Source: Amoebophrya sp. A120 | Taxonomy: Eukaryota; Protista; Dinoflagellata | DNA length: 64,000 nt | Assembly: GCA_905178155.1 (NCBI GenBank) | Contig: CAJINV010000007.1 | Location: 2,399,151 to 2,463,150, forward strand | Reading direction: 5' to 3' | Shown here: one piece after another, positions 10,363 through 35,309 of the stretch | Numbering within the stretch: position 1 is the first letter of the stretch | How the letters are laid out: each line of letters opens with the position of its first letter | Made by a program: the position numbers and the translations under genes | Notes under the pieces: generated by a model | Database searches by the model: none | What the model was told of the DNA's origin: nothing | Seen by the model: only the letters and a program-made list of their open reading frames with translations

Positions 10363-10970
10363 GCATCTGCAGATCTTTCAAATTCATCTTGGCAACAAAA
10401 ACAGAAGCAAGTGCGTGCTATAGTTGTACTTTCCATCACTTTGGTCTTTGCGTTTTCCTTCTGCACCCTTTCTATCCCGAACAACATCGTTACAAAGGTC
10501 ACGGATTCTCTCGGTTCCTCTAACTGTGGACACTGCCCGGTCGCGTGGGCCAAATAGGGCAACTCCCCGCCACTCGCTTCCTGCGCGGCTAGATGTCGAT
10601 TGTCCGGGTTTTTGTAGTAGGTCGCCAAGCCTATCCCACACACGTTGAAGTCCGGCATGACCATGTTGCGAAAATGACCCGGCGAATGGACCCACCCGTC
10701 CACCGCCGCTTCCGGAACCGCCTCGAGGCCGTAGTTCTCTAACCGGGCGAGATTCTCCCCGCAGCCCTCAAACGTCCCGGCGTCATTTATCCGGGACAGC
10801 GCGTTTTGGTGGGAGAACGGAACCAGGGCCTCGGACATGCGGGCTGATGTTGATGTTGTTTCAGTACTAGAGAGGATTTCGAGTAATATATTCTGTTTTG
10901 AAAGTAAGGTAACATCAGCATCACTTCTCACATTCAGTTTGCTGCGAAATTGATGAAATTGCCAAAACAA
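10353..10970 (-). CDS. CAP/SCP-domain protein (core exon; upstream exons probably extend towards about 11940)
   Basis: FSH...CGENLA...AVDGWVHSPGHFRNMVMPDFNVCGIG is a typical CAP (YkwD-like) signature. Confidence 0.8.
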   Translation of the reverse strand: MFWQFHQFRSKLNVRSDADVTLLSKQNILLEILSSTETTSTSARMSEALVPFSHQNALSRINDAGTFEGCGENLARLENYGLEAVPEAAVDGWVHSPGHFRNMVMPDFNVCGIGLATYYKNPDNRHLAAQEASGGELPYLAHATGQCPQLEEPRESVTFVTMLFGIERVQKENAKTKVMESTTIARTCFCFCCQDEFERSADAWY

Positions 10971-13152: not shown

Positions 13153-14934
13153 TTAATACCCGCCCTGCTGTCCGTTCCACTTTCCGCCTTTCCCGCCCTT
13201 TCCCCAGCTACCTGACGATCCCCCGCCTCTTCCGCCCCACCATTTGCCGCCTTGCTGCGTACCACCGCCCGCCCACGGCGCTATTCCACCACCCGCTCCA
13301 TTTGCAGCACCCGCAGCACCACCACCGCCCCATGGATGATCCCCTGGCGCCGGCATGCCGAACGCACCACCCGCTGGCCCGCCTACGCCGTTTTGCGTCG
13401 CGACGTCCCATGCTGCTCCGGGTTGCATCAGCGGGTGGCCAAACATCCCAGCTGCGCCCCACATCGCGGCGGCCGCGGCCGCGGACTGCTGAGCAGGGTC
13501 GTCGATTTTCGGTAGCGAAGAGGAGCTGGAACTGAAAGACTCGGGCTTTTTCTTGCTGTTTAGACGTTCCTTCTTGTGGCTGTAGTGGGGATAATCTTCG
13601 TACATCTCCTGGACCAACCGCCGCTTGTTCGCTCTCGGAACATGCTTGATGTGCAGAAAGTTGCAATACCTGATGTGATGAAAAAAAAAAGTCTAATATT
13701 TCTCACCTGCAGCTCCTGCAGAGCGAGGAGGTGAAAATAATAAACAAAGCTCCGCGCACGAGCAGGACGACGGCGCACCAGAGAAACTTTTCAAGCGGTT
13801 AGAAGTACCCTCCGCGATTGCATCTCGCCTCGTGGAACGCGCGGCACCTCGCCTCCCTGAAGTCCGTGACCGGGGAAAATTCCGCCTTTATCATGCGCCC
13901 CGCGTTATGGGATTCTCAAATGTTACACTCTCAACTGTTGCATGAATTTGTCATGCAAGAAGAGCAAAAGTGAACGCGGGAAGATTGCGCGCTTTGCATT
14001 ACAAATTTGGAGCAGGTCCAGGTGGTGTTTAGCCCTTCGCGAATTTGTCATGCGAAACACCTTGATCGTGTGGCGGCTTATGGTCATTTTGCATGACAAA
14101 TCATGTAACAGTTGAGGATGAAGTAACGTTTGAGAACCCCATACGCGTAGTACCGCCCGTTCAACTTCTGCAATGCTTTCTCCGCGTCCTCTTCCATAAA
14201 GTACTTCACGTAAATATCGAAGAAAAAAACTTTGTTAGTGAAGGTGTCTACTTCGGGGGACAGCATGACAAATTTTCTCCGCATGAGAGAAAAAGCAAAA
14301 GCCTGCCAAGCACAGCAAGTACGTGAAAACACATATGAAAAGATGACGTCATGGGTGTCTGGCATGACAAGTGTATACTCTCTCGCATTTTCTGCATTAC
14401 AAACTTACACAGTTTTTTTCTCGCATAGTAGATGTTGCCCAACATGTGCTCGGACACGTTATCCGCAACGATCATGTCTTCTATCTCACCGTAGGTAGGT
14501 ATGCAATACAAAAAAATTTCCCGTAAACGACGTACACCATGCATGACAAGAAAGTTCGCCAGCTTGGAGCTTGCTACTAGTCATGCTCAATCATGTTCGG
14601 ACGATGGATTGGAAAAAACTTTTGTCATGCAGAAAAATAAGAAACTCACTTTTACGTCGTGAACAAAAAAAAAAAATTGCACTGTGGATAGTAGCCAGCT
14701 CGTGGAAAACCTCGTCGTAAAAATCTTCCAAATGCTTCTGCACGGCGTTGTAGGTTTCCTCCTCCCAGAGTCCCCCCGCTGCTATCTTCACCGCAGCGGC
14801 GGGCACGGGGTACATGTGGGACAGGAGAAGCGTCTGACTGGACGTCGGTCGCACGTGGTGTCGGGAGCACTGGTCGCCATGTCGGCAAGCGCCGATCTTC
14901 AGGTAGAAAGGGCAAGTGCCGTGCGCGTCCTCGG
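13153..14934 (-). CDS. U2AF1: U2AF35/U2AF1-like splicing factor, divergent paralog 1 (Gly/Trp-rich tail; 5' end unresolved)
   Basis: Spliced product has ZnF1 [48 protein letters not shown] and ZnF2 [25 protein letters not shown]. It has three introner introns plus one GT-AG intron at 13670-13808. Confidence 0.92.
13906..14143. mobile_element. Introner, family A (opposite orientation to 5708-5943)
   Basis: TIR TATGGGATTCTCAAATGTTAC / GTAACGTTTGAGAACCCCATA; DR CGCGT. The interior aligns with the reverse complement of 5708-5943. Removal gives [15 protein letters not shown]. Confidence 0.93.
14215..14427. mobile_element. Introner non-canonical intron
   Basis: TIR TATCGAAGAAAAAAACTTTG / CACAGTTTTTTTCTCGCATA; imperfect DR GTAAA/GTAGA. 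Removal gives the conserved GNIY-VKY. Confidence 0.9.
14500..14690. mobile_element. Introner, family C
   Basis: TATGCAATAC...GTGGATA ends with partial TIR; imperfect DR GTAGG/GTAGC. Removal gives FHELAT-YGEIED. Similar to the reverse complement of 28673-28874. Confidence 0.88.
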
Positions 14935-17176
14935 CTGTTTATGTTGAAGCTTTGATGTTCTGCGTGCAGAAGCGACGTCGGACTCAGAACTCTACGATTT
15001 TTTTTTGCAAAATAAGCACTACCATATGCGGAAGCAAAATATAAAACAACACCAAAAGCGCTCGAAATCTGATGCATGAAGAAACTACAGTAAAATTTTA
15101 CCAAAAAGCGCCGTGCTGCCGTACAGCGGTCTGCACAAAGGCTCACTATCCATCGCTACGTTCTCGTCTGAAATAATTTACGACACGTGGATAAGAGGCT
15201 GATGGTTCCGTCTGTAGGGGAGGCGTGTAGTTGAGTTGGCTGTAGTTGCTGCTCGGTTCTTTTCGTCGAGCGACTGTTGCGTTGCCTTTTCGCCGGAGCC
15301 GTCGAGCTGCTCAATTTGTGAAAAGATTGCGTTTGTTACACAATCAGTGACAGTGCCAGTCGTGCTGGCAGAGTCTGCAAGAAGAAGATCATACAGGCTT
15401 CGCAGTAGTTGTTGACCAAGTACCTACTTTGAGGTCCTACTAGAGGTTTTTTTTGTCACACTTGTTGAGTAGGAGTGACCTATTCCAAGAAAGGAAAGTT
15501 GTTGCTTACAAGTACAAATTTTTGTCCCAACACGTCGCTAAAATCATTAATGCAGAGCTCAAAATCGGAAAAAAAGTTCCGTAAACCAGTTATGTAAATT
15601 GTATTCCTTCAGAAGTAGCGCTTGGTGCAGATGAAAGTAGGTAATTACCAATATATCAAAGAACTCTTGTCTTTTTTGGGTCAAGTCTTCGAATTTTTTT
15701 TGGATGCAGTAGTAGATAATAAGTTCGGTGTTATTATGCTGATGTTTGAAAGTTGCTCGTGTCTTTCTTTGCCTTAATTTTTTCCCACAGCAGTTGCAGT
15801 TTCCGGCGCAGCTTTTTGCTCCTTCACACTGACTGTTTCCTGTTTTCCTTGAGGAAAATGTAGCTTTTGTTTCGCGCATGTTCATGTTCTGTTGTATCAG
15901 AGCAGTATTAAAGCTAAAGCTATGTCGTGTGTGCTACGTGTACGTGTGGCCGCGTGGAGGTTTTGTAAAATGAAAAAAAGGTAATTCTGTGTGAAAGACT
16001 CGTATGTTTTCGCCATGCGCAAAAAGGCGGCAATCCAGCTTCATCCTTTGTACCAGGTGCTGGAGGTTGGAGCCTGGATCGGCTCTGCGACGCTGAAAAC
16101 GCGCATTGCCTCGTCTTCAACGGAATGCAATCATCTTCTACTATATGCAACATGATATCATGTTTGTGACTTCCATCAGCCTATCTTTCTTGCAACTAAA
16201 CCTAAATTCATGAATTTCGAAAACGACAAGGAATATAAACGAGCTAAAAGAAATCAAATGCGAAGGGCATCACTTTGATTCGTGAGCCGGCCAGGCGTGG
16301 ATACGCTAGTGCCGCAGACCGTTTTGCCGACAAAGTATTCGCGCATCTTCACATCACAAAAATCATCTTGCAACACAACTTTTAGCCGGACACTTTTTCG
16401 CAGCACCAAAAATATTACGCGGACCTTGAGCTTGATCTTCTTCGCAATGACATCATCGCCAAAAAACGCACGAGCCAGCAATCACAACATGAATGTGGAC
16501 CAGAAATTATAAACCGCGGGCCAACACAAATTCAGCAAACCAGGTGCATCGGCAAGTCCCACTTCTACACAATATGGAACACCTTTGGTGAGGGGTAAAG
16601 AACACGATACGACGAACAGGACTACGAGCAAGTAGCTACTTTATAGTAGATTTGCTACTGCTCTTCATGACGCGACTAATTCTCCTTTTTTTCTCTTTGT
16701 GTCGTTCTTTTCTTTTTTCATTCCTTCGCGCAATTCCGTTTGGATGATGTGTGTGTCTGATGGCGACCAGCTTTGAGCAAAGAAGCCATCGAGTAGGCGA
16801 CCAGCACAAGGGGGCGGGAGCCAAAAGAACGACCAAAAGCCACGTCGCTGGTGGGTAGCTGCGTAAAATTCTTGCGTCAACATCTAGATTGAGGTGGGTT
16901 GGCAGTACAGGTCCTCTTTTTTGTCGTCGTCTGCCCATTGGGCGATCATGGCTCGTCGCTCCTCACTGTTGGAGCGGTGGATCCTGTTTTGATGGTTTGT
17001 ATTTCCTCGTCCATGATGTTGTTATGTAGACATGAGAAGTGTCAGTGTGCGTAGTTGCTCATGGTGAGGCTGATTTTCGTGTCAGTCCACGACCTCGGAT
17101 ACATAGTACAAAATTCGGATTCGAATCTCAGCACTGAATGAAAACGACAACAAACATGGTCCTCGAAAAAAACAAT

Positions 17177-18674
17177 TCAATACTTCGCCCCCAAGTCGCC
17201 GTCACCTCTCCCGCGGTCCCGCTCTCTGCCGCGATCGTCTCTTCCGCCTTTATCCCTGCCCCTGTCGCTTCGCTCATACCGGTCGTCTCTACCTCGGTCC
17301 CGGTCGCGGCCTCGATCCCCTCCTCTCCCTCGGTCTTCCCGCTCTCGGGATTTGCCTCGCGCTGCTTTCCTCTTCTTGTTATCGCGCTCGAGAAATTCCG
17401 GGTGTTCTTCATACATGCCACGCACGAGCCTCGCCTTCACGGCACGGGGAATGTGCTTGATGTGCATAAAGTTGCAGTACCTGGGGGTGGTTGTGGGGGT
17501 TTGGATTTCTATGGCGTTGAAATGAGATAATGACGAACAAAAGATCTAGTTTTTTTATAATTGTCCCGAGGGCAACATAGAAGCAGACCCATGTAGTTGC
17601 CATCCGTGTCAACATTAACATTTCAGAATGAGAATCATTATCATCTGAAATAAAAAGTGCATTATCAGCAGTACCCTCCCCGATTGCAGCTGCTTTCGTG
17701 GAACTGCCTACACCTGGCTTCCCGAAAGTCCGAGACGGGGGAGAACTCCGCTTGGATCAACTCTCCGCCGTAGTACCGGCCCGTTAAATTTTCCAATGCC
17801 TTCTCCGCGTCCTCCTCTCGGTAGTATTTCACGTATATGTTCCCGACCATGTGGTCGCTTATGTTGTCGACGACCACCATATCCTCGATCTCGCCAAAAT
17901 TTGCCATTTCCTGAAACACCTCCTCGTAGAATTCTGTGAAATATAGGTTGGACCACAATTTGTGAAATTTGTATTGCGATGAAGCATGATGTTGAGCATG
18001 ATTGCGCTTGTTCTCATCAACAGAAATTACGACTCAGATGTGGTCATGTATGCATGTGTCACTTTACATAGAAGCTAACGAAACCAGCAGCAGCACCAGA
18101 ACTTTTGGAAGAGCATAATTTATCAACGAATTATACGCTCCAGATGCTTCTGCGCCACATCGTACTGGTCATCCGTCCAGTCTATTTCTCTTGCGATGGC
18201 GAGCGATTCCTGCGTGTTGGAGTACCTGCGGATGAAGTACAAATTCAAATTCTTGTTTGTCGATGCTCATGCTGTCTTCATGCGAAAATAAGAATGGCAG
18301 TGGGTACTATCCCTCATCTATTGAAATTTGTCAACATGCGAAGTTGAATGGGAAAGCAAAAATCAAAGAAACGCTATACATGTGACTCAACAACAACGTT
18401 TGCGAGCTCGTTGGTCGGTTGTGCTGCCGACTGCATTGATCGCCGTTTCTGCAGGCCCCGACTTTGAAGTAAAACGGGCAATTCACTCGGTCCTCTTCGG
18501 TACCTGGGAAGTTAGTAATTTTTTGTTAGACTCTTCAATTCATTTTCATTTATCCCTGCTCCACCAAGAAAACCATATGAAGAAACGAAAAGTAGGATGT
18601 GAATCCGTCTACTCATAGCTGTGCTCCACAGAAATGATAGCCTTACCGTAGATGTTTGCCAAATGCTTCGCCAT
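17177..18674 (-). CDS. U2AF1: U2AF35/U2AF1 splicing factor, conventional copy (paralog 2) with RD/RG-rich tail; 5 exons
   Basis: [41 protein letters not shown] ... GNIYVKY ... [25 protein letters not shown]. In-frame GT-AG introns at 18504-18646, 18226-18379, 17934-18136 and 17481-17674. Confidence 0.95.
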
Positions 18675-20153
18675 TGTCGCTGTGTGCCTCCTGGTTTTGC
18701 TTTGTTTTCAGGATAAGGTGGATTGAAAATGCTAGGATCAAATGGACGATGTTGCCCCGAGGAAAGTGGACTATTAATTCGTGTTCCTCTCCTCGCCGAT
18801 CCCGATGCGTTTCGTTCCAGGTTTTTGCCGCGGTTTGCTCAGGGAAACAGATGCTGTGTCGCACCAATCTCAATCCTCACGGTCGTCACCTCGAAGGTTC
18901 CTATCCTGATGAAGAAGCTATGTTTATTCGTGATGTTTCAACGTTTTTACGACCACGTTCTACTCTTCTAACATCAACATGTAGAATCCAACCAGAAATC
19001 GTGTGAAAAAATGTAGTATGTCTCGCTGTGATCATGTCGCTTGACGACCTGTTGCTGTGTGGTAGTGCTGAAAGGCCGCTTGCTTCTATCGTGGGGTAGT
19101 ACCTTAGACCTGCGCTTTGGTGAAAAGTTTGAACATAAGCAAATCAATTTTGTGAAAATAAACGGCAGCGAACTCATTTACTTCAGTCCGACACTGCGCT
19201 GCGCATTTCTTGTGTCCTCTTGCAGCACTGCCTAATCTTGGCTGCTCCCCGCAAAACTCCCGGGAAAAACATCTGCGCTTTTGCTGATTTTGGTTGAAAG
19301 TGTTCTGCTTGCTTCGCTTCCCAAAAAAGGGAAACAGATTAGAAAAAGATCGAACCTCTGCCCGAGAACTATTTTCTAGCGATACCATCTTAACGTTAAC
19401 AATATTTTTTTCTGTAGATGATCTAGAACAAAGGCATTTTTCTGGACAAAACAGCGACCGCGAAACCTCGCTGGCAGCGAGTCGCTGCGCGCACAAAGCT
19501 TCATTTAGAGCTTGTTTGTGAAGATCCTTCTCGTTTTATTTCGCTGCAAGAGCAGTTGCACAACCTGCAACATCTCCTGGACGAGTGCTGAAACTTTTTT
19601 TGAAAATCATCATCGTAATTTCGCAAACGCGGGACATCATATTGGTGGGCGTTGGTCTTGATCAATGTGAAGAGATGCTGAAGCTTCTCGATTTTGGATT
19701 TATAGGAGTACAAGATGAAGATTGCTTGGCTGAGCTGGCATGTTCCAACACCAACTACAAAACCACTCATAATCATAAACATAAAGTAGCTGGCGAAATA
19801 AAGTAGTTCTGAAGTACCGACAAGCGCTCCCTTCGTGTTCGTCGATGTTTCGATACAATAATTTTCTTCGAGTGTCCGTAGCGTAGTAGCAGCACCAGCG
19901 GAAGCCGATTAGTACATGATATGGGTGAAGTACAATTCGTACACGCTAAGTGGGGTAAAAGTAAAGCTGATGAAGGTTAAAAAGTGTTCTTGCTGATGAA
20001 CAAGGATTTCAAATTTTTCAAATTGTCTACCATCTATGGTCGACCACGGGCGACGTAGGAATGACAAAGAAGGACGCGACAGGGGAACCAGAGACCCTGT
20101 AGAAATTCCACGCAGCCCCGCTTCCTTTACCTTTACCTTCCCTCACGCCGTCC

Positions 20154-21990
20154 TCACGCCACTTGATTCATGAGCACTTCGGTTGAGACCATCATCACCA
20201 CGCCCGCCGCCAGCCCGCTCACCACCACCGGTCCGGGCAAAAACCCGACGCACGGACCGCAGGAGGGCCCGAAGCCACGCTTCTCCTGCAGCATCGCTTC
20301 CGGGAGCAGCTCGAACATGGAGAGAGCGCACATCAACCCGGCGGCAAAGGCGAGAACGAGAGAAACGGGGACTTGTACCTCCTGAATGCAGAAGATGGAA
20401 ATCAGCGCGCCAACCGGCTCAGCCAAGCCGGATGCAGACGCTAGGGAAAACGCAAGCCATGGACGGTCGGGGAAGGCCTTTGTTTTTGTTTGGGAATATA
20501 GGACGTTGTTCTTCTTGTGGATCTTTGTCTTTCGCAGAACAAGTGAGACGAATATCAAGACGCATGATCTGTACGCAGGTGATGTTGAAACCAAACTCTG
20601 AGTTTTGTCTCACTTTGCAGCATGAATACTTAATCTTCAGGTTGTACAGGCAGCAAAAATTCATATTCTACCGCCAAACACGGCACGGCAATCGCCAGCC
20701 CTTCGGGTATGTTGTGAAAGAACACCGCTGCGGCGACTGTCGCGCCCACCTTGTCGCTCAGCTGCCCGCCGGCTGCGACCGCCAATCCCTCTGGAAAATT
20801 GTGCGCCAATAGAGAGACAAACATCAGCAGCGCGAGGCGCCACGAGCGCTGCTGCAGCACTATCGTTTCCGCGACCGTTGACTTCGAGTCCGTCGCCTCC
20901 CCGTCATGTCGGTCCCTGACCGCAAACCCGTCGACGTGCTCCATGGTTAGCTGCTTCGACCTCCACGGCTGGACGAGAAAGGTGGACGAACTACTAGCTT
21001 GCTCCCCCTCCGCTCCTGCGCTAACCATTCTCCTATTTACGACCGTGCTGCTACTCGCTGCTGCGGCTGATGTTCTAGTTCCTGCGTTTATTTTCTTTTC
21101 TGGGGTTCCTTTCTCGATGTCATCAACATCCGACTCGTTTGTGGATGCTACTGGCACGTCCTGCGGATTTTCGCCACTGGTCATCATGGTGTTCGCGGTG
21201 TTTGTATTTCCTGCCATAGGGGATTCCAGCCCGTCCGACATTAGTCGCACGTCCGGACTCGCGTACACGACCCGGTCCTGCTTTTTAATATTCGCAGCTG
21301 TAGAAGAACTCGTTCGTGATTTATTTTTCCTTTTGTTCTTTTCTTTCAAATCTTTTTCAATGCTGCTAACATCTCCCCTTGGTTCGTGCTCGTTTTCCTG
21401 TTCTTCAGAGCTGCTACTACCGGGCTGTTTTGGCAGTAAGTGCTGCCCCTCTGACAGATTCTGCTCCTCTTCCGCTTTCAACTGCTCGAGAATAATGTCC
21501 TCCGCGGGCGGGGGGTAGAGCGTGTACCGGAGAAAAAAGTAAACCAGTCCGCCAAGCAGAAACCACATGAGGTCGAGGTAGAGATCGCGCATCGGGGTCG
21601 TGGAAAGCTTCTTGTCCTGTCCGCCAATGACCGCTGGTCCGATAGTCAAAGCGGACACCGTGAGCATGACGCCTAAAATAGAGCATAGAGGTGGCATTAA
21701 AACAATAAATCTCGCTTCAATATCTATAAGCAATCTTCATCTCGTGCTTCCACAAAGATCATGTCTGTGGACTTGCAATGCGTCAAGGTTTTCAATAGAG
21801 CGAAATACATCGAAAATAATAATAAACCTCCCAAGAACGCATTGAAAAATACAAATCCAGAAGCTGTACCTGCCGTGAGCGCAAAGCTGAAGGCCATCCC
21901 ATTGCTGGTGATTTTGGGTGCCCAGATGGGGATCAAAGCGCCCAAAATGGTCCCGCTACCGGCAATCATCGCGAGGTAAACCGCGTCCAT
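20154..21990 (-). CDS. ZIP-family (ZupT/GufA-like) metal transporter; 3 exons
   Basis: HNFPEGLAV, HNIPEGLAIAVP, SGLAEPVGA and AFAAGLM..ELLPEA motifs with multiple TM segments. GT-AG introns at about 21674-21869 and 20478-20671. Confidence 0.92.
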
Positions 21991-23003
21991 CTTAAACTCC
22001 TGCTGGCGGGTACCTTGCACTTCGTGCGCGAGGGCAAGCTTGTCGCGAACGATTTGAAGTACCATTTTTCTTTTATATTTCTTGTAGTGTATTCAACAAA
22101 TTATATAAATCCAAAACCAGATCTAAATGACGCGATGTTACTCCCCTCGTGGAAACAAAACTATAACAAGCAGAAAATTATACCAGTACAGCAAGGGTAG
22201 ACCGAGACGGACCCGGCCTCAGGATGTAGAAACTAGACGAGGAAGAGGGAAGAACTACAGCTAGTAGTACAGCTACAGCTAGAAGTTGTACAGGAATGTT
22301 TTCTACAACAAATTCTTTTTCTTGTCGCTCTTGATATTCGGAAAAAAAAATCTGTCCATTAAAAGTAACTCTGTGTACTTAGAGGTCGAGGTACCTCTCC
22401 TATGGTCTTCTTACAACCCTTGTTCTCTATTGAGCTCAACTGATGAAGATAAACCACAAAAAGGAGCACAGGAACATCCGGAATCAGACAAGGTACTGAA
22501 GATGTAGTTGAGACACATGCACTAGGTAGTAGAGACGAAATATTGTGGATACGGTATAATCTGTATGGCCCGAGCGAAGACGAATAAGATTCTGACGCCA
22601 GCAACTTAACCGACTAGATGGACCCGCCATGGTTTTGATATAATATTTTTTGCCTTTGGTTTGAAGATGTACGGGCGAGACCGACTTCTGCAGAGGAGAC
22701 ACATTTGTTGTAGATCGATTCAAATGCATTTGCACCACGGACGAATGCGAGAAGCTTCCAGCTCGAGACAGCTGCGGCGTCCGAGATCATTGTTCGAATC
22801 GAAATTTCTTCCGAGTCACGTCGATGGTTCATTTTATTTTTCCCTGCCAGGATGGCAGGACAATCAAAATCATTTGGAAACGAAAGCGCGAAATCTCATG
22901 ATTGCAAGTCCTCGTGCAGGGCGGGTCTCTGTATCTTCACTGTCTGCTTAATGGCAAGAAAATATTCTTGGATTTGCGACCACAGCGACATCACCTCATA
23001 TCA

Positions 23004-26000
23004 TCATCGCTTCGGAGGTTTCATTTTCTTTGCACTTGGTGCACGACAAGAGGTTGACACTGTACTACTTCCGGAACTTGCTACAAGAGCCCCCGCCGAG
23101 GTGGAGCCCGAACCTGTTCCACCATTCTTGTGATGTTGATAGTACGCAATCATCAGATATCGGTCCCGCACACTCCGCCGGGATTGCAACAGATCCAACA
23201 CCAACTCCAGCAGTGCGTCCAAGAGCGCTTCATCACAGTTTTCGAAGTTTCCGCCCGCTTCGATTCGGCTGTGCAGCGAGTTAATCCGGTCTTGCTTGAT
23301 CAGCAACTCCGCTCGCTCTGTGTCCTTCGCCACGTGAATGTAGTCGCGGGTAGATTTGTTATCCAGGAAAAAACACCCATCCCCATTCATTTTTTGCATG
23401 GCAAATAGTGGATTTTATGCATGTTTCGCATGACAAATTGGATGGGGATGGGTGTTTTTTCGTGGATATTTGTAGATGAAATCCAACAACTGCTGCAAGT
23501 GAAGCTGGAGCGACTTTTTGATGCTCTCCTTTTGGTGCAAGAAGTTGGTCTGGTGCTGCAACTGCCGTCTGTACTCAACCGCTAGATAATCTAAGCAACG
23601 GAGCTGCATCCACGGGGAGAGGGGGGACTCCGGTATGTCTTGGAGCAGGCTCAAGACGCTGCTTGCGGTCTCCCCCGAAAGAGCTTTCCAGGGCCCGATC
23701 AGCATGCAGTGCTCCTGTATGTGGAATTTCGTTGTTAGCAGTCTGTTACGAACATCTTGAGACAGCGCGTTTGTCCACACTGTGGTGAGGATCCTCTCCG
23801 CCGCGACGCCAAAGATTTCGTGTTCGTAAGAACTCGTAGTGTCTGCATCGGAGGAGGAAAGGTGGTGGTTTTTTGGTGTGCTTGCTCTCCTTGTTCTCGT
23901 CGTAGCCACAGATTTAATATTACGCTCTCTTGAAGTCGAAGTTGCAACTCCTTTCGGCATGGAGGACCCTCTGGCAACCATTGTGACGACCTGCTCGCCA
24001 TCGTCCTCGCTGAGCATGGGCAATCGGCCGGAAGAGACTGCTTGCACCGAACCGGTTGAGGTTGAGCGGGTGCTTGGTGAATAACCAGACTCATCGACTT
24101 CTTTCCCGGAAGATGTTGCAGAAGTTTTCGCACGAAGATTTGATGCAATTTCTGCTTTGATTTCTCCCAGTCTCTCACTAGTTTCAGCCGCTGTTTTCAA
24201 CCTCGTCGCTATTTTCGACAACAGCCCCTCTTCCACAGACTTCTTGAAGTCTGCAGCCGACGTGGCTGCCAAGCGGAGAGAAGAGGCACGAAGAAGCGAC
24301 GTTGCGGTGATGTGCTTCGCCACTGTGTTCGCCAAGTCATTGTCGCCCATGGTTTGTGTCGAGTCTGCGCTCCAAAAGTCGCCATTTTCGCCGACGCTCT
24401 GCATGAGGTGAGCGACATTAAGGTTGACTTTCTTATTTCTGTTGGGAGAAGTGGAAGAGGATGACGACTTCAAAGGCGAAGATAATTGGCCTTTAATGTT
24501 CATCACATCATCTCCTGTGTCAACGCGTAGCGGGGGGCGGTATAACCTACTCGACGACGATGATGACGGAGTAGCGTCGGCGTCGTTCGAAGAGAACTTC
24601 CCTGCGAACAGCCTCGCAAATTTGCTGCCAATAGAGTTGGAGCTGCCTGGTGCTGTCGTTCCTTGTTCCGGAGCAGCGAGTGCCGTATTATTTGATGCAG
24701 ATGCTGCACTCTGCTCTGCGAGATTTTTCCGGATGTCAAGCTCGGAATTGGGCTCTAAAACTTCCACTTCTGCAATAGCTCTCCCTGCAAAGTAATCCTG
24801 CTCAAAATGCCCCCGAGAAAGCAAGCCGCTCGTAGAAGCCCCTGCGTTTGTGATCGCGACGTCTTCTAACAAAGAGGACTCTTGTTCGTCCCCCTGCCCG
24901 CCGACCAAAATCGCAGCTGCGGGTCGGTCCGCCAGCTTTATCCTCTTCGGCAGCTCCCAGTGAATATTGTCCGTTTGTTCTTCTCCGTCTGCGGTGGTTT
25001 CTTCACTTTGATGGCTCGACGCTCCTTCAGAAGAAATTTCATCACCATGATCTGCCGGCGTGATCGTATCACCTCCACCCGACAACAACTTCAACCGTTC
25101 CGCCCTCGAAGGCCGCGCTAATCTTGTTTCCGACAGACCGAACCTGTTTTGCCGGTTTGCGTACGTCACTTCGGTGCTCCAGACGGTGTTGCGAGTTTTG
25201 TTCAGTGGTGGCGCAGTGGAAGAGGAAGTAGATGATGAACTTGTCCCGTTCGACGTTGGATGAATCATCAGCACATCCTGTGACTCGTAGCTTGTAAAAG
25301 TTTTTCCGTCCCTGGCTGCATCGTCCTCTTCGTTAACTCTCGTCGGGGGTTGCAACAGGACGCTGCCACGCCGGGAGAGCCTGGTGGATTCCTCATCCAC
25401 AGAGAGCAGACTTGTTGTACTGGTCGCGGGCAAGGTTGTTGCCGCGTCGGAGGTGCGGACGGCTGTCTTCTCCGCCGCACTCGCCCGCTTTGCATCGAGT
25501 GCAGCTGTAGTTGAGACTCTACTTGTACCGGTCGTACCCTGAAGATGGTCGCCAGTGGAAGACGAAGACGTGAGTGCAGCTACCCCGTTAGTTCTTTCCT
25601 CCCCATCAACATGTGCAATCGCCACCCCCTCCCCGACCGTTTCGTGCGACATCACCCCAACGTTCTCCGGTCGTAAACTCTCCACGAACGGCCGCACCAT
25701 TTCGTGAGACAAAACCACCGACAGCATCTCCGAAAACTGCGACACATGGGCGGCTAGTTGCTCCTGAATCTTTGCGACAACTATGGTTTGAATCAACGAC
25801 CCAAACAGTTTCGACAGAATGTTGTACAGCCAGGCGAATCGTGTTTCCTCCACATGTAACTTGAGCTCCCCAATCCGCATCTCGTTCTTACTCATCACCA
25901 ACTCTGGGCGCCAGCCACTGTTTTGGTGGGCTTCGTTGTCAGTATCGGAGGTTTGGTCGTATTGGTATCTATTATTGCCGCGGCTCTGATGCGAGGAGGT

Positions 26001-29000
26001 TGTGGAAAAGATGCTGCTGCTGTCATCATCTTCGTCTAGCGCAGCAGCTTCATCGTCTTCGGAAGTGAGCAAATCAGAATTATTTTCGTCAGCGAGTGAC
26101 CTGTTGGAGGAATCTTCAGAATCGAAGTCCTCTACTTCGCCATTACCTTCTCTTCTACGACCCTGTCGTTGTCTCCTACCCCGCCTCCTGCTCCGTCGTG
26201 GTACTGCGACCTGACCTCCCGAACAATCTGCTTTTCCTGCGTCAGCAGTAGTAGTTCTTTGCTCCTCGTTCTCCGCCGTCGTCGTTTTCACCCATCGCAC
26301 TGAGAAGCACAGCTGCAAACTCACGTCCCCCGCAAACGCAAACGCCAGTCCGTGGCCTCTCAGGAACGGGAATTTCTTCTGTTTGTACTTGAACCGCAGG
26401 TCTTGGATCTGGCAGCTCATGTCCCAAAGTTCGAAATTTAGCAACCGCGGATCCCCGGGAGTTGTGTTCAGCTCTAATTTCACACACTCTTTTTTCAATT
26501 TAAACCCCGCTAGGTCCAAGTTCTCCAGTTCATAGACCAAATCCTCCGATTCGCCCCCAAGTTCCGCGATCCGGATGTTCGGGAGAAAGGACATCAAAAG
26601 ATCAACCGCTGCGTCTAGAATTTCGTTGAGGAATTGGTCTCTTTTGTCGCCGTCCATCAACTTATCGATCGTGTCCTCGGCCTTATCGAATACCCTTCCC
26701 ACGTCGAGGTTTTCCAGCTTGGAGAGAATCTGGGTGGACACTGTCGCACTTTGTGTCCCTCCGCCCTCCGCTCCGTCTTGCTGCGGTTGCTGTGGATGCT
26801 GTCCTCCTTCAGGAGCCGAGTGGCCGGAATCGCTCGCGGTGGTGGTGCCGTCGTGGTAGTTTTGGAGCTGCTTGTTCTGTGCGACGTTTTTCGGTGGGCT
26901 GGAGGATAAATTTAAGGCGCTGTTTAGCAACCCTTGAATGGCAGAACCCTGGCTCGCGGCGTTGACTTGCTTCAGAATACCGTCCACCTTCTCCATAGCG
27001 GTCTCGGCTTTCGCGGCCACCCGGTCGTTGGCGAGGATCTTTGAAATTGTGTTCACCGGATCTCGTGTGAAGTCCGAGGCGGAAACATCGAGCGAAGCAA
27101 GGGTTTTGGACTGGAACAGAGAGGAAGAGGCTGCAGCTTCGTCGTCGTCATTCGCACTTCTTTTCCCGCTTTTGCTTTTCGACGCTGAAGAAGATCCGGC
27201 GCCGCGCTTATTTCTCCTACTTTTACTTCCCTTGGTACCTGTAAGATGGTCCGGGCTTCCTCGCGGGGAAGACGAAATCGTAGCTTTCGGAAGGAGTTTC
27301 TGCAATCCTGGGGGCAGTTTGATCCCGGCTTTGGACAGAACGGAACCAAGGTCCAGCTTGTCCAAATAGTCTAAGTTCTGCGCCTTATTCTCCCATTGCT
27401 CAAGGAGTTCTAAGCTGGTCTGCTCCTCGGTGGCGAAAGTTTGCACCCAGTTTTCGCACGTTCTGGCGAGAGTTTCGCGAATGGAAAGCGGTGGCTTGCC
27501 GGAGGAAAGCGCGTCCGAGGTGTGCTCGTCGAGCTGGAAAGGATTTTGATTTTTTTTCTAGTTTCCGCTTCGTCCCGGAGCATGCAAGAACGTAAGATAA
27601 AAGTAATGCTTGTGTACACTGCTCATGCAAGAACGTATAGAAACAAGTAAGGTCAACCTGTTGTGTGAGGCTGTTGCATGATCCAGCATTAAGAGGATAA
27701 AACCAAACGTGGTAAGTTGGAGTTTAAGTACCGTGCTCGCCAGCGAGTCGATTTCATCTCCCTGCTGCTGCAGCACCTGCAAGATTTTCGCCCTCGTATT
27801 CTCCAGCCAGTCTGGATTTCTTCTCAGAAAGCGCTGCTGCACGGAAGCGAGAATGTCCAGGCCCTTGCTCTTCCACACCTCTTCCCTTTCCAGCAAACCC
27901 TTTCCCAGGCTTTCCACTTCCGCACTCAACTTGCTCCCGAGCTCCCCCGCTAAAGCCGCGTTTTGCGACGCCAACGCAGCGGCTTCCGGATCTTGAGGTG
28001 CTACCGATTGTTGATCACCTTGAAGATGTTCTGGTCCCTGCGCAGCTGCCTCTCCTGCGTTATTAAACTGTTGCAAGGTCTGCATCAAGCGGTCCCCACC
28101 GAGTTTAAACCTTCTCCCCACGGCCGTGTCGTCGAAATTTTCAAAAGTTGAGCCAATCGCGTCTTTCACTCTGTGCACTGCGTGGTCCGCCTGCGCCGCC
28201 AGGTTCTGCACGTCTTCATCCTTCTCGAGTTCCTCTCCCATTTTCTGCACCCCGGTGACAAGTTTGGTCGTAATGTCAGAAAATTCGGACTGTAAAACCG
28301 TCCCCACGTGCTCCACTTCGTGTTCGAGCTCGCCTTTGAGTTTTCGCACGTCCTCGCGCAGACGTTGCTTCTCCGCTTCCGTGACTCCGGGGGCGGAAGC
28401 AGGTGCTGCTGGACTCGTCGGCTCTTGTTGGGGGGTGAGGAGAGACGAAGTGCCTGCATCATCTGCATCACGACCTAGACGGTCGCGCGAAGACGACGCG
28501 ACAGGTGAGAGCGGGGCACCGGCATCACCAGCACTAACACTAGAGGAACTTCTTGCAGGTGCGTTTGTGGTCAGTACATCAGGCGGAAACACAGCGCTCT
28601 CACGGGCAACACCTCCGACCGAATTCCGTTTATGCTCCTGCACCACCGCCGCAAGCCAGTCCGGCCTGGCGATATCCAGAGTAAATTCACCGTAACCGTA
28701 CGATGGACGAACTTACAAACGCGGTCTAACTACAGCATGACAAAATTTTGATCTACCTTCTGTCAATCCTAGTACTAGTCAGCATGACGAGTTGCACACT
28801 CCAAGTTCTATTGCGAAATTTGTCATGCCTTTTGGGTTTGCACGTCGTTTACGGGAAAAAGCTTGTATTGCATAGGCAATGCTCGTGTTCAACAGGAAGG
28901 AGCTCTGTCTTCGTGCCTTGACTAGATCTTTATCCACAGTAAATTTCCTGCACACGTACAAATGCAGTCATCTCTGCATGACAAAACTTGCCTTCAGTCC

Positions 29001-31291
29001 TAGTGTAGCATGACAAGTTGGACACTGCAAGTTAGCGAAATTTGTCATGCATTTTGTACATGTACAGGAAATTTACATTGCATAATCTTGCAGCGCGTGC
29101 TCCAAGTCTTCCTGCTCCTCGCAGCAGTCGTCGAACGAGAGGGAGCCGTCCAGTTGCGCAATGTCGGACGCGCGTTCCCACGTGGACACGTCCTCCTCGC
29201 CAGAAAGAGCCTCTTCGAATTCATCGTCACTCAGCGGCGTTTGCTGCACACGGAGCACCATAGCGCGCGGGGCTGCTTCTTGGGTCGCGACAAGATGATC
29301 TTCTCGTCCCGCGGGAGAGGCTGCAGTTGCAGATGTAAGAACATCATCAGCAATAATTCCACAACCCGTAGGGGCTTCTCCTGATGTTCCGGCGACAGCA
29401 CCCGCAGCAGAAGTTGGCGCGGGTGCGGGAGATAAAGAACCACCGGTCATGTTGCCAGATGGAGCTGTGCCGCCGCCCGCTAAAGTCGTGGACATCAACG
29501 TCTCCTCCAATCTCTGCCCAGTTGTTTCCTTCAGATTTGCCACGGTTTTCAGCGAGGCCTGTTTCACGTCCTCCACCAGCGTCGACGGAACCAGCCCGGC
29601 TTTCTCCGCGAACTTTTGAAATTTGTCCAGCAGCGCAAAGATCTTCGCTTGCCGCACACGCCACCTCCGTCGCGCGACTTCGAGAATGGGGAGCCAGCGG
29701 GCGTCAGATTCAACTTCGTCATAGAACCCAACCATGCCGTCATCGAAACAAACTTTCCAGGAGTATTGGGGCGGTAAGGTTATTTGTGCCATGCTAGATG
29801 TTCTTTCTCTTTCTCGCAGATCGTCGAAATTTGTCTGCTGGAGCTGGTGGTCCTGGTGTTCCATAATAGCCGCGTCTACTTGACTATCGGCATCACGACG
29901 TTCTCGAGCAACATCTTCTGATGCTGGGTCTACCACTTCAGCTTCCCCAGGAGCCTCACTTGTTGTTCCGGCACCCGCTGCAACAGTGCCAGCGGAGGCA
30001 AGTAGTAGCTCTCCCGCATTTATTTTCCTCGATGCAGTAGATGTCGCTTGTTGTTTCAACATCAGACCTTGTAGTCCACCAGCACCCCCACTGCTTATCC
30101 TCGCCGGGCTCAGCAGCGGCGCTCGCTTCCTCTCGCAACCCACGACCAAGCCGCTCCCGTGCACCGTTTTGCACTTCAGTCCGACACAGGCCGGCTCTTG
30201 GTGCGCGCAAAGTTCGTCTTTTGACACATACGCTTGAATCTGGAGACTCGGGAAGTCCACCACATGGATTTCGTTCTTCGATTGCCACCCCACGAGACGG
30301 AATTGAAAGGTAACATCTTGATCCGATTGAGGAAGTGTGAAGAAATCGTTTTACGACTTTCATCAAGTGCAGCTGGTTTTGGTTTACTTCCGTTGGAATC
30401 ATGCACTTTTTCATCTACCTTGCAAATCAATGATGAAGCAAAAGCAATCTACTTACTTGTTGATGAAGCATCATAGATCTGATCTTCACCTCTCGATGAG
30501 ACCAAAAGATGAGCGCTTATTTCCCTGATGCATAGCACGCCGACCCCGAAATTGTGCAGCTTTACCCGTACGCAGGCCCCGATCGGAAACTTCGACGCCT
30601 TCAAAACTTGCGACCTTGGCAAGGTGCAAAACACCTGCCGCTGGTTCGCGAACTTTGCCGCGTTGGACTTGTTCAGGAGCGTAACTTCCACTTTTGTCGA
30701 CTGCGCGCGCGTGCTATTCGTCGTGCAGGGGAAGCCCGTCTCCTTGCTGTGGATCAGCTTCACTTTGATCAGCTGGCTTTGGGACGATATCGGGTCCTTT
30801 GCGGAGGAGGAGACGTCGAGCCTGGTTCTTGAGGTACTTTTATTCTGTGACGATGTGGTATCCGTATCTCTGCGAGAATTTCTGCTGCTGCTGCTGCTCG
30901 CGCTGCCAGTACCCACGACCAAAGGAGAGGATGCGGCCTCCGCTGCAACAGGAACGACATCTTCTCGTCTCATCGCGTTGCCACGATCAGAATTTTTGTC
31001 GTAGTCCACCGCATCCGCAATGCACATGCCGATTCCGAAGTATGGTACTTCTACGTAGCGGCCAACAAAGGATGGCGCATCATGAAGACCAGGATCTTCG
31101 CAAGTCACACGCTCGTGCTGATCATATACCAAGGTGGTATTGCCCAACGCCTGCGTTATTACTCCTTCGCTGTCAACTACACCGAGAGTGGCTGCTGCAG
31201 CTCGTACATCCGGTGCAGCATCAATATCCGTCGCGGAAACAACGCCGTCAGATGGAGCAAGAGGACGAGACGACGATGAGGACACCTTCAT
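23004..31291 (-). CDS. Large multi-exon protein with a HAM1/DUF4449-like (TULIP/BPI-type) segment
   Basis: ORFs 30449-31291, 29073-30293, 27558-28646, 23415-27446 and 23004-23399 can be joined through introns (three introners, one GT-AG at about 27534-27731, one unresolved at about 30300-30534). LRFKYKQKKFPFLRGHGLA and LKLHVEETRFAWLYNILSKLF resemble HAM1-like C-terminal domains. Confidence 0.7.
23360..23468. mobile_element. Introner, family B (opposite orientation to 10031-10149)
   Basis: About 29-bp near-perfect TIR TATCCAGGAAAAAACACCCATCCCCAT / ATGGGGATGGGTGTTTTTCGTGGATA; DR TTTGT. Removal gives DFIYK-STRDY. Confidence 0.93.
28673..28874. mobile_element. Introner, family C
   Basis: TATCCAGAG...TATTGCATA ends; imperfect DR GGCGA/GGCAA. 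Removal gives NTSIA-RPDWLAAVVQE in frame. Confidence 0.88.
28931..29084. mobile_element. Introner, family C-related
   Basis: TIR TATCCACAGTAAATTTCCTGCACACGTACAAA / TTTGTACATGTACAGGAAATTTACATTGCATA; DR ATCTT. Removal gives HALQD-LVKAR. Confidence 0.92.
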
Positions 31292-32689
31292 GGCTGCGAG
31301 GCTCTATTTTACAGTTTTTCGTTCGCACTCTTTCGTCATTCACATTCGTCAAAAACCGGCGACAACAAGGAAGACGAGGACACAACTCATTTAATCGTAT
31401 TTTTTCGAACGGGAAATGAAGATCGTCTTCGTCCACATTGGCGGGTATCACAACAAAGAATCTTTGTGTCGTCTTTGTTCCAGCTCGTGGATAAAGACCC
31501 CCAGTGTGATCATTATGCTACAACAATGACGAAAAGCAATCATGGAGATGGAGCTGAGGATCGGGCAACAGTGAGAAAATGGCGATACTGCGAAGGCTAC
31601 GGCTGGCGAATGACCACGGCTAGAGGCACCGTTAACACGACACACTCCGGTCGTTATATCTTTATCTTATTGCGCATCCATCTTTATATTGCGATAACAA
31701 ACACCACGCAGATAAAATCAAGCGGGCAACCAAGTTTGTATCGTGAATTTGTTTCGAGTTCGACGGAGGAGTTCCAAATTCAAAGTGGTTTTGGGGACAG
31801 TTTGTAAAGTTAGCTTGCTCAACATCATCAACGTTTTTTCGTGTTCTTGGGGAAACTAAACTTTTTTCTTTGTGTTCGCAATCGTTGTTGTTTTTTTCCG
31901 GCGGAAAGGTCGTTCTTCCTCTTCGCAATATCATTCGGGTTGAAAAAATATCAGGAAGTCGCTAACATCCGCTTCAAATCTGAGGGGACAGAATGAGAAA
32001 GTGATGTTGTAATAGTTTTATCGCGTCGTATGATAAGGAGCTAGGAAGGTTGGTGTTGTTGTTTCGTGGTCGATTGGATATGAATTCGTTTTTGTTTCCT
32101 CCATAATATGAGTATGACCTGACGCTGGTCCAGTGTTCTATCTATCGCTAGATTTTCTCGTAGTTGTAGTTCCCGAGTGAAAAAATCTTTTCGTAAATTT
32201 GTACATTTTTGTCGTAAGAGAAAATCCTCCATCAAGTAGCCGAGCATTTTCAACAAAAAGGACGACATTTTTTTGCCTTGGTCACGAAGCCATAACCTCG
32301 ACCAATCTGCCATCTTCATCATCTGTGCAGCCGTAGTAAAATGAAACTGAATAAATCGTGATGGTGTAGTTGTAGAAAACTGGAAAACACATTGAGTAAA
32401 TACTATGACATCAATTAGTTACGGACGACAGCAATATCAATAGCCTCAATTTCGATATTTTTCAATTTTATTTTTCCAAAAAGACATTTACAAAAATTGA
32501 CATGATCAATTCAAGCACCTTTTTGATGTATCGAGGAACAAGTGTGGTCCTATCATCATCATCAAAGGTACAACAGCAAAACGTCGCTCCAAATCTCGTC
32601 GAAACACAAACATCAAACTCCTACCAAGAACTTGTAAAATTCGATAGAATTATTTGTCGAGTGAAGATCCGCCGGTTGAGAAAAACACC

Positions 32690-35309
32690 TCACTGCGGAG
32701 GAGCTCCACCCATGATCGCCGGAGCTCCTGGGACGCCCGCCGGAATCTGCGGAGTGTTTGGTCCGCTGCCAGGTGCGGGTGGGGGGAACAGCTGAGCGGT
32801 ACTATCCACCCGCGGACTACCTTGCGGGGCCGCTCCTGGCGGTGCGGCTCCGTAGTCCATCAGTTCCTGTAATGGCATCATGTTGCTGACCGGCGGTAGT
32901 TGTCCACTTCCCTTTCCAAGCATCGTCCCCGGCGGCGGTCCGCCACCCTTCATATGCACAATGGTTCCCGGCGGCGGCATGCCCGGCTTGCCGCCCATCA
33001 TATGTGGTGGTCCACCTGCAGCGCCCGGCGGAGCAAATCCGAATGGCGGCGCAGCACCACCTGGTCCTCCCGGTGGTGGGGGGAAGCCCTTCATCATCAG
33101 ATGCGGCGGTGGTGGTCCACCTCCGCCCTTCATCATCATATGCGGCGGCGGGGGCACCATTCCCGGTGGCGGCGGGGGACCTCCTCCCATCATGAAGCCC
33201 GGGGGCGGGGGTGCGCCTGGTTTTCCGCCAACTCCCGGCGGCGGAACACCACCCCCCTTCATCATCATCATCATTCCCGGATTCATATGCGGGGGTGGCA
33301 GAGCACCGGGAGGAAGCGGACCGCCTTTCATCCCCGGCATCATCGGATGATGAAACATGCCCGGCGGCGGTGGTCCACCAAATGGTGCGCCCGGCGGGGG
33401 CACTCCACCTGGGTGGAACTGACCGCTCATCGGCGTGGGCGTTCCGTCACCTCCGACCGTTGAGGGAGTCAATTCTCCGGGCTTCGGGGGGTTAAACGCG
33501 TCAAAGGGGCCGCGCATCACGTTCTTCGGGGTGGGGGTCTCGTCCTCGTTATCGTGCTCGCCGTTGGCATTATCGCCGAGCATCAGACGCTTGGGGTTCA
33601 TGTCGTCGCCGTTCTCGTGGTCCTTGTGCCGCTTTTTCTTTTTCTTGCCATGCTCATCCACCTCTTCCATAACCGCGCTCCCGTTGGGAAAGAACGAGGC
33701 TGTTGTGTTTTGATAGAATTCAAAATATTTCCTCGGCGCACGGTGGGTTTCATGCTTTCATTATGCAGATGCAGGCGATGGCTTCATGCAGAAGATAGTA
33801 CAACTGGTTCTGGTACATCTCTGGTAGTCATTGTCATATATTATCAAACAATTATTTAATGTTCCACTTCACGAAGAAACAGCATGTTGATCTCAACACA
33901 ATCGAATTGAATACGGTTTCTGTTCATCTCCGTGGCGTTCCTCGTTTCCGGGTCTTCGGGACTGCCGCTGCCGTTCGCCGGCGTCCCCGCTTTCTCCTGC
34001 TCCCGCCGCTCTTCGTACATGGCCCACCACTTCTTGTGGAACGCCTCCCTGGCGTCCGAATCGTTGTCCCAGTCGACTTTGTCCAGAAACTTGTAGGTAA
34101 TGGGCCGTCCGGCCTCCTCCCGGGCCTTCTTGTAGTCCGGATGGTCCGCATACATCTGCATCACGCACTGCCGCTTCAAAGCCTTGGGAACGTGCCGGAC
34201 GTGCAGGAAGTTGCAATTCCTGGATTTGATATGTTCAACATCAAGTGCTCATATTCTAAATATATCACATCAAAGCATCCAGACCAAACTTTCAAGCCCG
34301 GTAATACGACTTACGCACTATCATGGTGTGGTGCTGATGAGGTTTGCATTGATTTCGATTTGCTTCGATTCACGAGAAACACTTGAACAAGAAAATGATA
34401 TTGCTTATCATGAAACAAGCAAGAGATGAGCAATATACTGTCCTCGGGGGCAGTTCGCCTCGTTGAAAGCACGGCACCTGGCCTCCCGGAAGTCGATACA
34501 GGGCGAGTACTCCGCTTTGATTTGCCGCCCGGAGTAAAACTTGCCGTTGACCGCCTCCAGTGCCTTGGTCGCCGCGTCTTCCGTGTAGTATTTGACGTAG
34601 CAGTTGCCGGACATGTGCTCCGAGATGTTGTCGACGAGGAGTAAATCCTCGATCTCGCCGAATTTCGCCATGTGGAAAAACGTTTCCTCGTAAAACTCTT
34701 CCACCTGGTCGACTGCGGTGCAGTACACCTCCTCGCTCCACTCACCCAGGTCCGTACTCACGGCAAGGGTCTCCGGGGTCTCGCCGAAGCTGGAAAGAAA
34801 TTTTCATATTTTCATCTATGCAGGAGCGTATGTTCACCTTGACAAATATCTTCAAAGCAAAACTACATAAACAGCATGACAGGCATCAAGCTGGTTCGAC
34901 AACAGGATGATTCTTTATGTTTATGGCACAGAGCTACAACTTTCTACATCAACAAAATTGAAGAAAAACTCTACTCAACAGCGAACAAGTAGCTAGAACA
35001 CATCATAGGACGTAAGTACACGTGCGCCAGCAACAGGCTGCGGGTTCGCTCTGGCTTGATGTGCTTTCGGGAGCAGGTGGTTCCGTGCCGGCAGGCGCCG
35101 ATCTTCGCGTAGAAGGGGCAAATGTCGCTCTTGGCCCCGCCAAACATGTCCGCTGCGGCCTCCGCACCGGTCACATTGCGAACCCGCTTTGGCGGTTTGC
35201 CCTGCTTCCCCTTCCCCTTCATGTTGGGGGGCGGACCGCCATGGAAGGAGCCGCTGCCATGATCCCGCGGGGTGATCGGCATGGACTCCTGACGCATCAC
35301 TTCCGTCAT
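32690..35309 (-). CDS. U2AF1: U2AF35/U2AF1-like splicing factor, divergent paralog 3 with long Pro/Gly/Met-rich tail; 4 exons
   Basis: ZnF1 [48 protein letters not shown] and ZnF2 [25 protein letters not shown]. In-frame GT-AG introns at 34790-35019, 34220-34438 and 33700-33914. Confidence 0.9.

Follow-up and report, generated by a model that had tools for sequence, protein, structure and literature searches.

A window of 64,000 nucleotides of the Amoebophrya sp. A120 genome (contig CAJINV010000007.1, positions 2,399,151 to 2,463,150; coordinates below are those of the window) carries a group of genes for homologues of U2AF35, the small subunit of the splicing factor U2AF. By tblastn, the window holds exactly three U2AF35-like genes, each of them on the minus strand; they are referred to as copies 1, 2 and 3 and are listed in Table 1. 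Each encodes a first zinc finger (ZnF1), a UHM/RRM domain and a second zinc finger (ZnF2), with two zf-CCCH matches and one RRM_1 match above the Pfam cut-off, and the top PDB match of all three products is S. pombe U2AF23 (E values of 7e-56, 3e-47 and 7e-38). The spliced frames, of 416, 298 and 651 amino acids, are letter for letter the Amoebophrya sp. A120 proteins P0018, P0008 and P0004. Splice joints were read from contigs of four runs of one sample (X3-X6); these runs are taken as RNA, which is a guess based on the absence of introns from their contigs. The contigs skip six introns in copy 1, five in copy 2 and three in copy 3, and no copy 3 joints were present in run X1, a DNA run that was compared over 19301-39300 only. 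Such contigs attest to presence and splicing rather than to expression level; they can neither rank expression nor mark a transcript start. They extend ca. 1 kb upstream of the starts of copies 1 and 3 (15154-16197 and 35310-36258), and these extensions may be long 5′ leaders. That any of the three copies is a pseudogene or an artefact is ruled out by the open frames, the spliced contigs and the conserved orthologs.

Table 1. Features of the U2AF35 cluster and of the introns around it (window coordinates; z, folding score relative to shuffled sequences).
Feature	Position	Strand	Basis and remarks
Copy 1: U2AF35 paralog, 416 amino acids, 7 coding exons, ZnF2 CRAF, His29 and Ser34 kept	12729..15153	-	joints, model, identical to P0018
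Copy 2: main-line U2AF35, 298 amino acids, 6 coding exons, 5/5 introns GT-AG, ZnF2 CRQF, His29 to Asn	16884..18674	-	joints, model, identical to P0008
Copy 3: divergent subfamily member, 651 amino acids, 4 coding exons, 3/3 introns GT-AG, ZnF2 CRAF and RGQNC	32690..35309	-	joints, model, identical to P0004
End of ZnF2, then copy-3-specific extension (about residues 240-292, Trp-Trp helix)	33967..34218	-	translation, alignment, model (helix predicted)
GT-AG intron inside ZnF2 codon 161 of copy 3	34220..34438	-	same codon and phase: copy 1 13670-13808, copy 2 17481-17674
Non-canonical hairpin intron (introner-like) in copy 1, 243 nt, 5-nt direct repeat, AG-less in every register	13901..14143	-	joint; z = -8.4
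Non-canonical intron in copy 1, 218 nt, 3-nt direct repeat, terminal inverted repeat, AG-less	14210..14427	-	joint; z = -3.8
Non-canonical intron in copy 1, 196 nt, 4-nt direct repeat, weaker hairpin, AG-less	14495..14690	-	joint; z = -2.4
Non-canonical hairpin intron, 114 nt, gene between copies 2 and 3	23354..23467	-	joint; z = -7.5
Non-canonical hairpin intron, 565 nt, GT-AA or TA-AG by register, beyond copy 3	37602..38166	-	joint; z = -9.1

A preliminary description of this DNA had reported three intact U2AF35-like genes, which tblastn, Pfam and the agreement of the spliced frames with the annotated proteins bear out, and had called for a check of expression, for which the spliced contigs of the probable RNA runs now give support in all three copies. 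Its coordinates were right for copy 3 but too short for the other two. Copy 1 runs from 15153 to 12729 and not from 14934 to 13153; the stop that had been assigned to it is intronic, and its first and last coding exons had been missed. Copy 2 runs from 18674 to 16884; here, too, the assigned stop lies in an intron, and the last exon, which carries the end motif ERRAMIAQW, had been overlooked. The motifs had been read correctly: ZnF2 contains CRQF in copy 2 and CRAF in copies 1 and 3, copy 3 also has RGQNC (assembled across an intron), and Ser34 is present in all three. The composition of the tails agrees as well. Copy 2 ends in an RD/RG-type, Arg-rich tail (25% Arg, 14 RD/DR dipeptides) followed by ERRAMIAQW. 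The tails of copies 1 and 3 are unrelated to it, Gly/Trp-rich in copy 1 (20% Gly, 4% Trp) and Pro/Gly/Met-rich in copy 3 (23% Pro, 18% Gly, 8% Met); both are free of RS and RD dipeptides, neither is rich in Arg, and both lack the end motif. The tail of copy 1 closes with a short motif common to strain A25, and its last exon matches A25 protein P0017; within this exon (12732-12947) a short Pro-Trp motif is kept in A25 and the rest of the tail is divergent. The UHM motif [RK]-X-[FY] is found in every copy (RYY, RYY and KFY). The description of copy 2 as conventional holds for CRQF and the tail, but not for position 29, where His is replaced by Asn.

Like human U2AF1/U2AF35 and S. pombe U2AF23 (4YH8, 7C06), the three products combine ZnF1, UHM and ZnF2 and retain all zinc ligands. 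In the S. pombe structure, AG is read by Phe20, Cys27, Arg28, Cys149, Arg150, Arg159, Cys163, Asn164 and Phe165 (PMC7505975), and all nine of these contacts are kept in each A120 copy. Differences from the human and yeast proteins lie outside this set: Ala in place of Gln157 in copies 1 and 3, Asn in place of His29 in copy 2, replacement of the RS/RD tail in copies 1 and 3 and, in copy 3, the loss of Glu12 and Lys15 together with an added extension that is predicted to form a Trp-Trp helix. Several of these positions make auxiliary contacts. In S. pombe, His29 and Ser34 read the -3 nucleotide, Gln151 (human residue 157) lies near -1 and +1, and Glu12 and Lys15 hold the ribose and backbone of -1G (PMC7505975). 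Copy 1 keeps Glu12, His29 and Ser34, with Ala at 151/157; copy 2 has Glu12, Arg15, Ser34 and Gln, with Asn29; copy 3 retains only His29 and Ser34. The change from RGGYC to RGQNC, which the preliminary description had singled out in copy 3, is unsupported as a base-contact change, since residues 161-162 are hydrogen-bond partners of Arg28 between ZnF1 and ZnF2 and not RNA contacts (PMC4536312), and S. pombe itself has Leu at 162. Replacement of Gly161 at this interface by Gln or Pro is nevertheless found in all seven members of the copy 3 subfamily. The change at Gly161 and the loss of Glu12 are specific to copy 3, yet affect no base contact, and Q157A is not specific to any paralog.

The last point follows from the distribution of residue 157. 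Relatives of U2AF35 were collected by a search seeded with the Gln-bearing exon of copy 2 (best 120 of 148 matches), to which the members of the cluster were added. A first tree, built by a quick method, kept 127 of 134 rows, the other seven having no parsable ZnF2 end (three of these, read separately, have CRAF). A careful tree was built from 41 chosen rows under LG+G4 with the Q/A column removed; neither tree included a ZRSR2 row. In the dinoflagellate clade, the site is occupied by Ala in 43 of 53 rows, by Gln in four, by Thr in four, and by Gly and Ser in one each, whereas outside this clade Gln is found in 70 of 74 rows and Ala in none. The majority of Ala was seen despite a Gln-bearing search seed. 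Carriers of Ala include Breviolum minutum, Durusdinium trenchii, Symbiodinium, Polykrikos kofoidii, Polarella glacialis, Effrenium voratum and Prorocentrum cordatum; in Tripos fusus the residue is Thr. The four rows with Gln comprise copy 2 of A120 and of strain AT5 and two close relatives. AT5 copy 1 has CRAF, and a relative of copy 3 found in metagenome DNA (locus L001) has Gln157 (CRQF).

Introns outside the GT/GC/GA-AG classes make up 0% of the annotated introns of B. minutum and 0.05% of those of S. microadriaticum (PMC7789003, Table 1), and AT5 introns are annotated as 99.98% GT-AG (PMC7789003). Since Ala occurs in dinoflagellates with introns annotated as AG-ending and Gln in L001, the Gln/Ala state tracks neither paralog class nor intron type. 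The preliminary description had taken Q157A for a mark of introner-adapted paralogs and had named beforehand a check, namely whether CRAF tracks with non-canonical introns. It does not: CRAF is widespread where introns are annotated as canonical, and Ala is the dinoflagellate majority, Symbiodiniaceae with AG-annotated introns and AT5 copy 1 included. Q157A is thereby ruled out as a paralog marker, and a main-line protein with Ala must serve an AG-ending majority of introns, even if annotation under-counts the others. On the tree, Gln versus non-Gln needs three changes, and an early loss with two reversions is indistinguishable from independent losses. Judging from these sequences, the Gln of copy 2 is the exception in the dinoflagellate lineage, with reversion and retention not separable on the tree.

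Core dinoflagellate main-line proteins (Breviolum, Symbiodinium, Durusdinium, Polykrikos) fall into the same clade as the A120 copies (99/98) and share Ala157 with copies 1 and 3 and Asn29 with copy 2. They differ in having Asn at the S34 site, and the end motif ERRAMIAxW is kept in those that were aligned. Core dinoflagellate U2AF35 (P0129, P0042, P0054, P0027) thus has Asn at both the S34 and the His29 site and Ala or Thr at the Q157 site; the pair Asn29 and Asn34 is present in 29 of 51 dinoflagellate-clade rows (9 unparsed).

Copy 3 belongs to a separate subfamily of seven rows (100/100) on a stem of 0.63 changes per column. Its core is 54% identical to those of copies 1 and 2, and in both trees it groups inside the dinoflagellate U2AF35 clade. 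ZnF2 is followed by an extension of about 55 residues, in which a Trp-Trp pair is invariant in all six aligned members; residues 268-292 are predicted to be helical (predicted local distance difference test score of about 70-77), and the extension gave no Pfam match. The predicted core is confident and matches S. pombe U2AF23 by Foldseek (E of 2e-17, TM-score of 0.85 by target), while the tail has little predicted structure. Searches with the extension yielded five full-length-matching clusters among 19 matches, and six proteins. These come from A120, from A25 (twice) and from JGI/Logan records; in all, the subfamily is represented in both introner-rich strains and in four further records. L001 was retrieved by a scan of metagenome DNA in which 229 pattern matches reduced to three loci, one of them of the copy 3 type. 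No such protein was found among those of AT5 or of named core dinoflagellates, in which the extension, too, was not detected, but the searches were weak, word-limited or clustered, and this negative result carries little weight because one of them also missed a known member. L001 is otherwise an intact copy 3 gene with an in-frame TAA at 734-736; the frame is open if TAA is read as Gln, and read-through, an error or a pseudogene are possible. In-frame TAA is reported as a trait of Amoebophrya sp. ex K. veneficum, the introns of which are mostly GT/AG (PMC12005148). The long-branch subfamily with its conserved Trp-Trp extension has apparently not been described previously.

In each copy an intron interrupts ZnF2 codon 161 in the same phase, from which it follows that the paralogs arose by DNA-level duplication; origin as retrocopies is ruled out on the same grounds. 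A second intron position is common to copies 2 and 3. In AT5, gene model P0007 is a fusion in which a CRQF copy 2, represented by its C-terminal part, is followed, as in A120, by a CRAF copy 1; the model aligns without gaps across the sites of the three introners of A120 copy 1. In A25, copy 1 (gene 1004) adjoins gene 1003, which is listed as the U2AF35 of that strain (PMC7789003, supplement); a copy 3 (gene 997) lies nearby, to judge by its gene number and a scaffold of the same length. The spliceosome inventory of that study (Table S6) gives one U2AF35 per strain and likewise one U2AF65, a count to be read with the single U2AF35 in mind; in contrast to the present result, paralogs of U2AF35 are not mentioned in its available passages and sections. 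A25 has a second copy 3 elsewhere, and the two A25 genes (P0151 and P0005) are sisters (100/94). Divergence is greater in the one close to the cluster (64% core identity to A120, Arg150Ser) than in the other (75%); the core of copy 1 is 92% identical between strains. The gene order and the presence of copies in AT5 and A25 indicate that the cluster is older than the A25/A120 split. Introner spread has been argued to follow that split (PMC7789003), and the extra copies are likely older than the invasion by odd-ended introns. Copy 2 is joined to core dinoflagellates by a branch with support of 90/85, and the AU test does not reject a clade of purely Amoebophrya type (p-AU of 0.134). Further U2AF35 paralogs with non-standard ends were seen in P0006, which groups weakly with copy 1 (81/76), and in L003.

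Among the RNA-supported joints listed between 12.8 and 39.3 kb, 13 of 18 are GT-AG and five are not. The GT-AG introns end in CAG (11), TAG (one) or AAG (one), and G follows in 8 of the 13. The five non-canonical introns have direct repeats of 1-6 nt and fold better than their shuffles, with z from -2.4 to -9.1 against -2.1 to +2.0 for canonical ones; for four of them an AG end is impossible in any register. Three lie in copy 1, and none in copy 2 or 3. The preliminary description of the DNA as rich in AG-less introns is therefore accurate for this minority, but most of the listed joints are GT-AG, and copies 2 and 3 have no odd introns. A register starting with TA is possible for all five. 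With their hairpins and direct and inverted repeats these introns resemble the introner elements of A25 and A120 (PMC7789003). In these strains, GT-AG ends are missing from more than 60% of introns, and neither end of such introns bears a clear signature; their removal has been called an open question, and the minor spliceosome and minor snRNAs are reported to be absent from Amoebophrya (PMC7789003).

A precedent for a specialized small subunit exists in Fritillaria borealis, where introns are mostly non-canonical and conserved and divergent U2AF1 copies are both transcribed; the RNA preferred by U2AF1beta ends in AC, and U2AF2, too, is present in duplicate (PMC13326754). There, the duplication coincides with a new intron class, the changes are in ZnF1, the ends are mostly AC/AT and binding has been measured. 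Amoebophrya differs in having three copies, known here from sequence, with copy 1 also present in AT5, whose introns are annotated as canonical (a prediction-based figure), and in intron ends without consensus; copy 3 was not found among AT5 proteins in the weak searches described above. The precedent fits less well because the Amoebophrya ends lack a consensus and are joined by hairpins. Copy 3 is, like ZRSR2/Urp, a larger U2AF35-like protein, and its ZnF2 loop presumably resembles that of ZRSR2. It differs from ZRSR2/Urp in its position within the dinoflagellate U2AF35 clade and in occurring where the minor spliceosome is reported to be absent (PMC7789003).

On balance, we consider it probable that all three proteins are AG-reading U2AF small subunits, with copy 2 in general use and copies 1 and 3 set apart by their partners or timing. 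Since the change of Gln157 to Ala is common across dinoflagellates, it is likely no answer to introners, and all three copies likely still read AG. The spliced paralogs would have arisen by DNA-level duplications before the A25/A120 split; as the sequences suggest, each may pair with U2AF65 through its UHM. Copy 2 would be the housekeeping subunit. Copies 1 and 3 would differ from it chiefly in the partners or the timing that their low-complexity tails confer; in copy 3, a loosened RNA clamp at the N-terminus and the conserved, predicted helical extension perhaps contribute as well. The hairpin introns would probably be excised via their paired ends and not through a U2AF35 that reads a new dinucleotide. 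Several observations weigh against this reading. Copy 3 lacks both Glu12 and Lys15, one A25 copy 3 carries Arg150Ser, and the copy 3 type, which occurs once in A120 and as two genes in A25, both of them introner-rich, was not seen (in weak searches) among AT5 or core dinoflagellate proteins. Gln151Arg lowers the specificity of the S. pombe protein in vitro, also at -1 (PMC4536312; Ala does not appear in the available passages), so a change at 151/157 can matter. AT5 genes are Augustus predictions (PMC6482013), and pipelines for Symbiodiniaceae were modified for donor sites only (PMC8045281); non-AG introns may therefore be under-counted by annotation. Finally, the tree dates the duplications no further back than the strain split.

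The interpretation built on Q157A is thus unsupported. The broader idea that divergent paralogs serve non-AG introns survives for copy 3, for which the Fritillaria precedent speaks, but we regard it as unlikely. Copy 3, and not Q157A as such, would then be an older paralog co-opted or retained for non-AG introner ends in the manner of U2AF1beta. The long stem, the loss of the residues that hold the -1G ribose and backbone, the Gln or Pro at the finger interface throughout the subfamily, the distribution among strains and a precedent with a measured preference for AC ends (PMC13326754) fit such a role, which we nonetheless hold to be improbable: the base-specific AG contacts of copy 3 are intact, and the non-canonical introns of Amoebophrya, unlike the AC/AT introns of Fritillaria, have no end signature and therefore offer no alternative dinucleotide for copy 3 to read. 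L001 adds to the doubt, as it combines Gln157 with an in-frame TAA, the trait of an Amoebophrya with mostly GT/AG introns, unless the TAA is an error. Equally doubtful is the more specific proposal that the spliceosome engages hairpin-ended, AG-less introner introns by way of copy 3, which would be a subunit dedicated to this task and fitted for it by its loosened RNA clamp and its Trp-Trp helix.

Less likely still is a pre-adaptation, in which the dinoflagellate-wide Q157A tuned U2AF35 to AG|G and loosened fidelity at -1, so that non-AG introners were later tolerated and the duplication was incidental. Human Q157P/R favours G at +1 (PMC4317169), the Symbiodinium acceptor AG is often followed by G (PMC4083563), as are 8 of the 13 canonical introns listed here, and Asn29 and Asn34 occur together in core dinoflagellates; these facts amount to no more than a correlation, the chemistry of Ala differs from that of Arg or Pro, a preference for +1G is present already in wild-type U2AF1 (PMC7505975), and the main-line copy of Amoebophrya has Gln. 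We give the least credence to a function of copies 1 and 3 outside cis-splicing, which could be spliced-leader trans-splicing, mRNA control or a role confined to a single life stage. Their cores are conserved between strains, and the RS/RD tail and ERRAMIAQW are replaced by low-complexity tails, with little predicted structure in copy 3; however, the UHM motif and all AG contacts are kept, localisation and stage use are hypothetical, and contigs cannot rank expression. The preferred reading, that of three AG-reading subunits, leaves the paralogs as concrete, expressible proteins, copy 3 foremost, with which to ask whether recognition of the 3′ splice site has changed. Were copy 3 dedicated to AG-less introns after all, the solution known from Fritillaria would have arisen independently a second time, and the unexplained splicing of two thirds of Amoebophrya introns would have its first protein candidate. 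The negative result matters in its own right, in that Q157A is no marker of introner adaptation. Core dinoflagellate U2AF35 is changed at both human cancer hotspots (S34 to Asn; Q157 to Ala or Thr) and at His29; these changes may bear on the dinoflagellate AG|G acceptor consensus and may supply natural variants for studying these positions. Searches of the openly accessible literature, to which the survey was confined (journals behind a subscription, and with them Roy et al. 2023 on dinoflagellate introners, lay outside its scope), brought up no paper on these paralogs or on Q157A in dinoflagellates.

Elsewhere in the window, no other splicing factor was recognized by Pfam among 27 long open reading frames. 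The neighbouring Pfam matches (2921-11033, 19524-22248, 38084-40615 and 62962-63429) are a YaaA-like protein, two papain-family protease frames, a CAP domain, a ZIP zinc transporter, a porphobilinogen deaminase with repeat-rich introns and a weak PDZ match. A frame of 2905 amino acids resembling a P-type ATPase spans 42124-50841. A 10-base motif found inside most of the non-canonical introns occurs 21 times in the window (0.24 expected); all 21 exact copies lie at or before 39533, and the remainder, 39534-64000, contains very long uninterrupted frames, the ATPase-like one among them.

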